The translations under genes were made by a program, and so were the position numbers. A stretch of 64,000 nt of DNA from Octopus vulgaris. Taxonomy: Eukaryota. The notes under the pieces were generated by a model, which was not told the origin of the DNA, did no database searches, and saw only the letters and a program-made list of their open reading frames with translations. The stretch lies in assembly GCA_951406725.2 (NCBI GenBank), contig OX597819.1:69564001-69628000 (forward strand), written 5' to 3'. Shown piece after piece: positions 31,341 through 32,863 of this stretch. Within the stretch, counting starts at the first letter, position 1. Each line of letters begins with the position of its first letter.

Positions 31341-31593
31341 TATATGTATGTATATATATATATATATATATATATATATATATATATATATATATATATA
31401 TATATATATATATATATATATATATATATATATATATATATATATATATATATATATATATATATATATATCAACAATCAAGGAACGGCCATAATAGGCC
31501 ATTCACCCACTAGAAATAACAGCCAAAGCTTCAACCGCAAATAAAAGTTAATTCTGTAAACCAGGAGAAAATTTAAAAAACATTTACCCTGTA

Positions 31594-31700
31594 ATTTCTT
31601 ATACGATATACCGTTTCATCTGCTGATTAATGGTAAACTAACCTGATTAAATTAAATCAAGCCAATCTTCCACAGGCCCTCAGATTCATCAGTAAGAAAT
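31594..31700 (-). ncRNA. Intact type I hammerhead ribozyme with extended stem II
   Basis: minus: atttctta CTGATGA atctg-[58 nt]-cagat GAAA cggtatatcg TA taagaaat; 8-bp stem I, consensus core, near-palindromic stem III, GUA site, predicted cut between 31602 and 31601. Confidence 0.92.
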
Positions 31701-32191
31701 AGCCCAAGTCGGAACAGATATTTTCACGAGGCATTTCCGACCTTGCCAAGTTTATATCTGACCTAAAATTTTCAAATCGTCGCACTCGCGCCAAATTTAT
31801 CGGCAGCAAATAAATATAAGCCGTCGATTCCATTACGGAATTAACCAGAAAATTCATAATTAATCAATATAGGGTGGCAAAAAAATTTTGTAGAATTCTT
31901 TTGCCACCAGCGGCCTAGTAGGAAAAAATTAAATAGTCATAGACCATTTTTAAGTTTAACATCAACAATCAAGGAACGGCCATAATAGGTCATTCACCCA
32001 CTAGAAATAACAGCCAAAGCTTCAACCGCAAATAAAAGTTAATTCTGTAAACCAGGAGAAAATTTAAAAAACATTTACCCTGTAATTTCTTATAAATTTG
32101 GCGCGAGTGCGACGATTTGAAAATTTTAGGTCAGATATAAACTTGGCAAGGTCGGAAATGCCTCGTGAAAATATCTGTTCCGACTTGGGCT

Positions 32192-32298
32192 ATTTCTTAC
32201 TGATGAATCTGAGGGCCTGTGGAAGATTGGCTTGATTTAATTTAATCAGGTTAGTTTACCATTAATCAGCAGATGAAACGGTATATCTTATAAGAAAT
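32192..32298 (+). ncRNA. Second copy of the same hammerhead with one stem III substitution
   Basis: As above but ...tatatcTTA instead of tatatcGTA. Confidence 0.85.
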
Positions 32299-32863
32299 TA
32301 CAGGGTAAATGTTTTTTAAATTTTCTCCTGGTTTACAGAATTAACTTTTATTTGCGGTTGAAGCTTTGGCTGTTATTTCTAGTGGGTGAATGGCCTATTA
32401 TGGCCGTTCCTTGATTGTTGATGCTAAACTTAAAAATGGTCTATGACTATTTAATTTTTTCCTACTAGGCCGCTGGTGGCAAAAGAATTCTACAAAATTT
32501 TTTTGCCACCCTATATTGATTAAATATATATATATATATATATATATATATATATATATATATATATATATATATATATATATATATATATATATATGTA
32601 TATATATTTGTATATATATATATATATATATATATATATATATATATATATTGGAAATAGATACGCACATAATATATTTATACGAATATATATATGTATG
32701 TATGCATGTATATATGTATACATATAGACACACACACTCACGCATACACATAAGCATATGCGAACATCATTTTGTTTACAGTATGTCATTTCCTTACATG
32801 CATGCAGAGTTATACCGCTATATTCATGCAACCTCAGTCAGGTTTACGAAACGTTCTTGTTTA

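Follow-up and report, generated by a model that had tools for sequence, protein, structure and literature searches.

A head-to-head insertion in a (TA)n microsatellite

The DNA analysed here (the window) is a 64,000-nucleotide stretch of Octopus vulgaris contig OX597819.1 (positions 69,564,001 to 69,628,000, forward strand). It contains two arms of one 491-bp unit, joined by their 5′ ends and flanked by two (TA)n tracts, the left of which (31341..31471, called by TRF) forms the 3′ flank of the minus arm and the right of which occupies 32524..32651. We number the unit from the base directly 3′ of the predicted ribozyme cut. The minus arm (31470..32092, minus strand, 623 bp) comprises a 491-bp unit plus 132 bp, running through unit 1–491 and then 1–132, where it stops at a short fixed 3′ end (31470/31471). 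The plus arm (32092..32523, plus strand, 432 bp) covers unit 293–491 and then 1–233, and stops at a long fixed 3′ end. The arms meet head-to-head inside (TA)n at a 3-nt ATA microhomology (32092..32094) that holds both 5′ ends, unit 490 to 2 for the minus arm and unit 293, away from any cut, for the plus arm.

The minus arm includes a complete monomer from cut site to cut site (31602..32092, minus strand), which lacks an open reading frame, and an intact type I hammerhead (31594..31700, minus strand) with a predicted cut at 31602/31601, called from a constrained fold, shuffles and family conservation. An 8-bp hairpin at unit 98–119 (31483..31504, minus strand), supported by folding and pair counts and putatively functional, lies 13 nt short of the short 3′ end. 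In the plus arm a second hammerhead (32192..32298, plus strand) has a private G-to-T substitution at 32288, which turns GUA into UUA and disrupts one pair of stem III (found in 1 of 325 aligned segments). The roughly 100 nt between the two fixed 3′ ends form a 'tail' (32423..32523, plus strand) containing a 15-bp hairpin (32475–32510), again 13 nt short of the end, here the long one.

The original prediction had traced the minus arm from 32092 through one 491-bp unit and an intact hammerhead to 31471, and this course is confirmed by the constrained fold and by a direct repeat (31470–31603 and 31961–32094; spacing 491, one mismatch). It had also placed the 5′ end of this arm at the next cut site, within the microhomology. 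Since the ATA is compatible with both arms, the end may lie anywhere in unit 490 to 2, an interval that does include the cut.

A search of the 2.8-Gb genome with the unit returned 1150 candidates, of which the best 40 were scored. In these 40 loci nearly all arm 3′ ends adjoin (TA)n at unit ~125–132 or 232–237, even though the query carried no flank. The two fixed 3′ ends are ~100 nt apart and almost always occur one per arm. The minus-arm 3′ junction has 238 exact copies in the genome and the plus-arm 3′ junction pattern 958 matches, two counts that are not comparable, the former pattern being specific to a subfamily. The genome contains a minimum of 958 insertion ends, which makes the window locus one insertion among roughly a thousand of a small mobile element without coding capacity. 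Its arms are head-to-tail tandems of up to about six units, and the head-to-head layout recurs, with distinct junctions, at 126 mapped two-armed loci. Contigs from four of four public runs cover the unit and the 491-to-1 joint, although the RNA type of the runs is guessed and contigs are blind to the difference between a circle and a tandem.

The element has neither a stop-free frame of at least 150 aa nor terminal direct repeats (LTRs). The absence of a reverse transcriptase (RT) plus GIY-YIG open reading frame means that it is not an autonomous Penelope-like element (PLE), but inverted 5′-truncated arms and a tail at one end only, the marks of PLE-type insertion, are present in the family. 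The element is a non-LTR retrozyme with Penelope-like insertion anatomy, and the window locus is a recent head-to-head insertion of this 491-bp non-coding hammerhead retrozyme into (TA)n.

Each repeat unit carries a predicted self-cleaving type I hammerhead. The constrained fold places CUGAUGA at unit 401–407, GAAA at 476–479 and GUA at 489–491, where stem I has 8 bp, stem II is long and stem III is short. The fold of the minus-arm copy is more stable than shuffles (z = -3.6). An Rfam scan of the window gave no matches at the gathering score, so the ribozyme call is based on the motif, the fold and conservation across the family. Aligned copies share an unchanging catalytic core, single substitutions aside, and vary where variation is allowed: at N7, at H17 (the cut base, either A or C) and in the palindromic loop III (UAUA or UGCA). 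Common variants fall at 0 of 33 positions in the core and stems I and III, compared with 48 of 458 elsewhere (P = 0.06). The exact motif occurs 96 times, in many cases at spacings of 491–493.

Elsewhere in the window, a 54-nt direct repeat (91% identical; 30744–30797 and 31283–31336) adjoins the left (TA)n and is apparently unrelated to the element. Tandem copies of a repeat that we take to be SINE-like lie at 32912–33017 and 33096–33201, at 10741–11155 and at 58328–58755, and a 37-bp minisatellite of 17.5 copies at 36377–37022. A 293-aa open frame on the minus strand (41518–42396) resembles a LINE reverse transcriptase fragment. A tRNA search of the 64-kb window found none.

5′ ends of copies relative to the predicted cut

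The ends of inserted copies were mapped at loci picked by their 3′ junction only, in contig order. The discovery set joined 97 loci containing 100 of the 238 short-end matches with 27 of the first 30 long-end loci (3 duplicates removed). The replication set comprised 60 further long-end loci; of 10 others, 9 were already included and 1 was omitted. The counts exclude arms with a 3′ end of another kind and partners that extend beyond the locus, and an arm is considered at risk of stopping only after its first 25 nt. The query of the top-40 search began at the cut and so favours arms ending there, for which reason loci from that search were kept only if they were also matched by the 3′-end pattern.

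Among arms whose first pass reaches unit 30, stops in unit 1–30, an interval chosen on the discovery set, are far more frequent than expected: 49 stops against 6.7 expected in discovery, 12 of 72 against 4.3 in replication (P = 0.005), and 61 of 244 arms against 11 in the combined data with the window left out. Copy 5′ ends are thus not uniform relative to the cut site, and the excess replicates. It appears in each arm type of the discovery set (28 against 4.5 and 21 against 2.6), indicating that it tracks position rather than arm length. There is no excess on the other side of the cut (unit 462–491; 14 against 15.3 expected). The first-pass pile-up is therefore firm and has a sharp edge at the predicted cut. 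The majority of arms read through the cut, crossing one or more intact hammerheads, which supports the multimeric or circular template of the original prediction.

Within the pile-up, ends at unit 1–3 account for only 4 of the 61 cut-proximal ends (at 1, 2, 2 and 3). The modes lie at unit 5–14 and at unit 20–28, the latter within a U-rich tract. Because cut-proximal ends are usually 5–28 nt short, the exact coincidence at the window locus adds little.

Arms that stop after a full lap, as in the window, behave differently. Later-lap stops at the cut numbered 11 against 4.45 expected in discovery but 1 of 35 against 2.1 in replication, so that the excess did not replicate; combined, with the window left out, it is 12 of 129 against 6.5, or 1.8-fold (P = 0.039). 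The stop rate in unit 1–30 is 25% on the first pass and 9% on later passes (all arms, Fisher P = 2e-4; discovery anchors only, P = 0.05), although the arms of a locus are not independent and pooled P values overstate certainty. A full lap followed by an end exactly at the cut site is seen at one further locus (L146). At three loci of the biased top-40 set (L044, L050 and L051) both arms end at unit 5–30 after full laps; at unbiased loci with a later-lap stop, the partner stops near the cut in 0 of 7.

The fall in stops on later laps over the same bases counts against a purely sequence-driven stall. Were all templates uncut circles or multimers, the enzyme would have to stall at unit 1–30 on stem I and the U-rich tract at unit 22–34. 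Many long arms do stop at unit 20–28, reiterated copies of 22–34 are present at the junctions of L086, L089, L092, L102, L107 and L172, the weak later-lap excess is of the kind that a stall would leave, and a folded ribozyme might block the first pass alone. The drop from first to later passes argues against this explanation, as does the joint stopping of both arms of a locus (odds ratio 94, see below), and we regard it as rather unlikely.

The pile-up might instead mark a transcription start or some other non-ribozyme 5′ processing near unit 1, with short insertions being copies of promoter-started RNAs. This alternative would also account for the coupling of arms and the sharp edge, and it has a precedent in the same genome, which contains two young and abundant families with intact open reading frames (family A, 1309 aa; family B, 711 aa). 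Both are assigned as putative Penelope-like elements by RT and C-terminal GIY-YIG-like motifs, Pfam support being weak or absent. Both insert head-to-head in (TA)n and have one short and one tailed end (tails of 56 and ~70 nt). Family B (for example L219:4456-6591, and loci L229–L258; 1639 exact short-end junctions) has a minimal hammerhead, yet 12 of 30 arms end 40–47 nt upstream of its own cut and 2 of 30 just 3′ of the cut. This pile-up is sharp and arm-coupled and lies at CCATTCT, which we take to be Inr-like, with a run ~27 nt upstream that we take to be TATA-like; the site is likely to be a promoter start. Because the family B pile-up is off its cut, a pile-up marks a template end, which is not necessarily a cut.

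The retrozyme edge, in contrast to that of family B, coincides with the cut and has no evident start motif. It falls within 1–3 nt of the predicted cut, as judged by the ends at 1, 2, 2 and 3, and no Inr-like motif is found at unit 1. A TATA-like run at -2 to +6 would place the RNA start at about +25, but the short arms at these loci extend as far as unit 1–14. A promoter start for the retrozyme pile-up is accordingly unlikely. The 30 loci of family A are no test of the pile-up, since no canonical hammerhead core could be placed near its end (for example L209:4272-8201, with an asparagine-rich insert in the open reading frame, a (TA)-rich 3′ region, a 56-nt tail and 2238 exact short-end junctions).

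Neither family shares DNA homology with the retrozyme unit (43 loci compared, best E 0.44). Open reading frames beside retrozyme copies were considered as the partner and rejected as neighbours that merely share the microsatellite.

Two arms per locus and a proposed mechanism

The two arms of a locus carry opposite 3′ ends. Partners of the 97 short-end anchors are long-end in 73 cases, short-end in 1 and other in 1, with none detected in 19 and 3 running off the locus. For the 87 long-end anchors the partner is short-end in 54, long-end in 0 and other in 8, with none in 23 and 2 running off. Among classifiable loci, therefore, an opposite-end partner is present for 73 of 75 short-end and 54 of 62 long-end anchors. 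The arms are also coupled at their 5′ ends. In the 126 complete two-armed loci, first-pass stops in unit 1–40 occur in both arms at 25, in one at 11 (8 + 3) and in neither at 90, giving the odds ratio of 94.

Divergence between arms of one locus is low (median 0.4%, against 2.4% between loci; 95 loci). Private variants were scored at positions with at least 3 copies, yielding 143 locus-private variants in 203 loci, of which 11 are in every copy of their locus, 14 in some, and 118 in a single copy and hence uninformative. At L050 and L333 a variant is common to the same lap of both arms. At L114 and L333 variants are shared in register from the 3′ ends although the 5′ ends are asymmetric, the L114 result coming from one analysis while a second check of that locus matched nothing. 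The units of L311 (G000:C1:173125400-173130300) follow an ABAB order of two linked haplotypes, in one of which stem III is disrupted, and a T tract becomes 2 nt shorter per lap. This array, and variants private to a locus and common to all its laps and both its arms, suggest circular or multimeric templates on which priming occurred twice. The ABAB pattern is that expected of a two-unit circle, but a later two-unit duplication could also produce it, and shared variants could reflect one source array rather than one molecule. Another array (L085:953-1521) repeats a shorter unit (391 to 140, ~241 bp) in which hammerhead and short end are retained, and may derive from a smaller circle.

Arm junctions consist of microhomology or short reiterated fill-ins. 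Reiteration of the U/A tract at unit 22–34, seen at L331 as well as at the six junctions named above, resembles template slippage by a telomerase-related enzyme, or templated end-joining.

Could the second arm be a copy of the first, made by cDNA fold-back or by self-priming on an antisense template, as the accessible text of one report proposes (PMC3846280)? In longer loci the two 5′ ends lie within 25 nt of each other more often than expected (11 of 58 against 5.1, P = 0.01), junctions contain palindromic microhomologies, and shared variants are predicted by this route too. However, among the 25 loci with two short arms the 132-end arm extends further 5′ in 20 (equal in 4, reverse in 1) while its partner carries unit 133–233, which the 132-end arm lacks, so that in this short class neither arm can template the other. 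In addition, the boundary is a sense-strand ribozyme site, and the variants of L114 and L333 are in register from the 3′ ends despite asymmetric 5′ ends. These observations make copying of one arm from the other very unlikely. Classic L1-style twin priming, in which one arm starts where the other ends, was rejected on the ends in the window (5′ ends at 1 and 293, 3′ ends at 233 and 132).

That the window junction itself is a misassembly or later recombination product, which would make its match to the cut meaningless, is most improbable: inverted repeats within a microsatellite are hard to assemble and 0 of the contigs listed for the four public runs span the junction at 32092, which is repeat sequence, but the same layout occurs with distinct junctions at the 126 mapped loci and the window arms carry private differences at 31990, 32288 and 32424.

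We favour one explanation of the observed layout, fixed ends, single end type per arm, pile-up, coupling and shared variants, and consider it, taken as a whole, probably correct: a PLE-type RT-endonuclease acts in trans, one sense RNA is primed twice, and the supply of cut or ligated templates sets arm length. A Penelope-like reverse transcriptase-endonuclease would nick both strands of (TA)n, and each broken target strand is likely to prime on the same sense RNA. The cDNAs would begin at the observed arm ends, unit ~132 for one and ~233 for the other, each 13 nt 3′ of a hairpin. Both start sites lie just 3′ of the ribozyme cut, and hence an RNA that has been cut and not ligated would give two short arms ending near the cut, the arrangement found at about a fifth of two-armed loci (25 of 126). 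On a ligated circle or an uncut multimer both cDNAs would continue through the ribozyme and produce units in tandem, the pattern of most loci, and the cDNA 3′ ends would then be joined by the microhomologies or reiterated fill-ins observed at junctions. Inserted copies are thus likely to record reverse copying of both cut linear and uncut or circular RNAs.

The ribozyme-generated template 5′ end of the original prediction is accordingly supported for the family, by the first-pass pile-up, more than for the window locus, where the relevant excess at later cuts is 1.8-fold and did not replicate. This weakness leaves the window at about even odds. As likely as not, its minus arm was copied from a linear multimer whose 5′ end had been cut while one junction was left uncut; the alternative is an ordinary premature stop that fell at the cut by chance.

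A more far-reaching version of double priming is that ligation of ribozyme-cut RNA licenses Penelope-type replication, a dimeric RT-endonuclease gripping a single sense RNA at two hairpin-marked sites close to and 3′ of the hammerhead, and priming it simultaneously from both target strands. Cut unligated RNA would then yield dead-end stubs, and a circle, whether of one unit or, as in L311, of two units of which one has a dead ribozyme, would be copied in rolling-circle fashion by both subunits. We advance this version tentatively and with some doubt. If true, it would account in a single step for pseudo-LTRs, tandems, tails and head-to-head inversions, and genome insertions would count linear and circular RNA states in the germ line.

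Relation to known retrozymes and Penelope-like elements

The octopus family is a variant of a known element class, and its copies bear on an unsettled mechanism. Metazoan non-LTR retrozymes and their circles have been described (Cervera and de la Pena 2020, PMC7229834), and retrozymes have been treated as PLE derivatives (Li et al. 2026, 10.64898/2026.07.22.740005). As far as the accessible portions of these two texts extend, the octopus element resembles those retrozymes in its non-coding tandem unit with one type I hammerhead each, low GC and lack of LTRs, in the occurrence of its sequence in RNA-labelled assemblies and in its inferred dependence on PLEs. Its unit of 491 bp is slightly above the 150–450 bp quoted there. 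Unlike the other non-LTR retrozymes in that material, it occurs as scattered short insertions of up to about six units, in head-to-head orientation within (TA)n and with 3′ ends fixed at two places; the word 'Inverted' is absent from the available text of PMC7229834. The 2026 report, in the part accessible, favours local tandem amplification and leaves the mechanism open. No pLTR donor for the octopus retrozyme was found in the comparison with the two abundant PLE families.

The likeness to endonuclease-positive PLEs, as described in the accessible text of PMC8557442, PMC3846280, PMC4209133 and PMC11167929, extends to inverted 5′-truncated arms, partial tandems, a 'tail' at one end, AT-rich or (TA)n targets and a hammerhead just 5′ of two internal start sites. 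Tails, inversions and the (TA)n bias of PLEs are covered by PMC8557442, and the tail also by PMC3846280. The octopus retrozyme differs in having no open reading frame and in tail length (~100 nt, against 30–40 nt in these published PLEs and 56–70 nt in families A and B). Its 5′ ends pile up at the hammerhead cut, a feature that is absent from the accessible text of those four reports and that family B mostly lacks.

Ribozymes also set the template 5′ end in R2 and in SIDEs with HDV-like ribozymes, where non-autonomous derivatives borrow protein (PMC6765202, accessible text). In R2, however, the cut yields a full-length template, whereas priming just 3′ of the cut in the octopus retrozyme would convert cut RNA into stubs and make any complete unit dependent on reading through the junction.

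In L1 twin priming, two target ends prime one RNA to give an inverted structure joined by microhomology. The octopus retrozyme departs from that arrangement in that both sites are fixed and internal, the arms overlap in sequence and several laps are possible.

These insertions bear on how PLEs make head-to-head arms and on what PLE hammerheads do, about which earlier positions diverge. Cutting, ligation, circle formation and more-than-unit copying were proposed in 2014, without genomic evidence (PMC4209133, accessible text), and antisense self-priming of head-to-head arms in 2013 (PMC3846280). In 2024 cleavage was found to be dispensable in vitro: according to the accessible part of PMC11167929, a purified PLE protein nicks each strand and extends it, copying from two internal positions of the RNA, hammerhead mutants insert normally in vitro, and no RNA-seq reads end at the cut, Fig. 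S2 of that report bearing on ends at the cut. In a young, abundant family free of open reading frames, template ends can be read from hundreds of insertions. The octopus family points to cleavage in vivo, to templates of sense polarity and to two priming events per RNA, and its insertion anatomy ties retrozyme mobility to PLE machinery beyond co-occurrence. In the titles, abstract openings and passages covered by our literature search, which took in few subscription papers, no accumulation of genomic 5′ ends at the hammerhead cut of a PLE or retrozyme was reported. A 491-nt substrate allows a direct test of linear against circular templates.

Unrelated type I hammerhead-like motifs were seen in the flanks of ten retrozyme loci (L046, L048, L061, L094, L096, L106, L119, L123, L135 and L143). 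One such motif is common to four loci, so this genome has other ribozyme-bearing repeat families.
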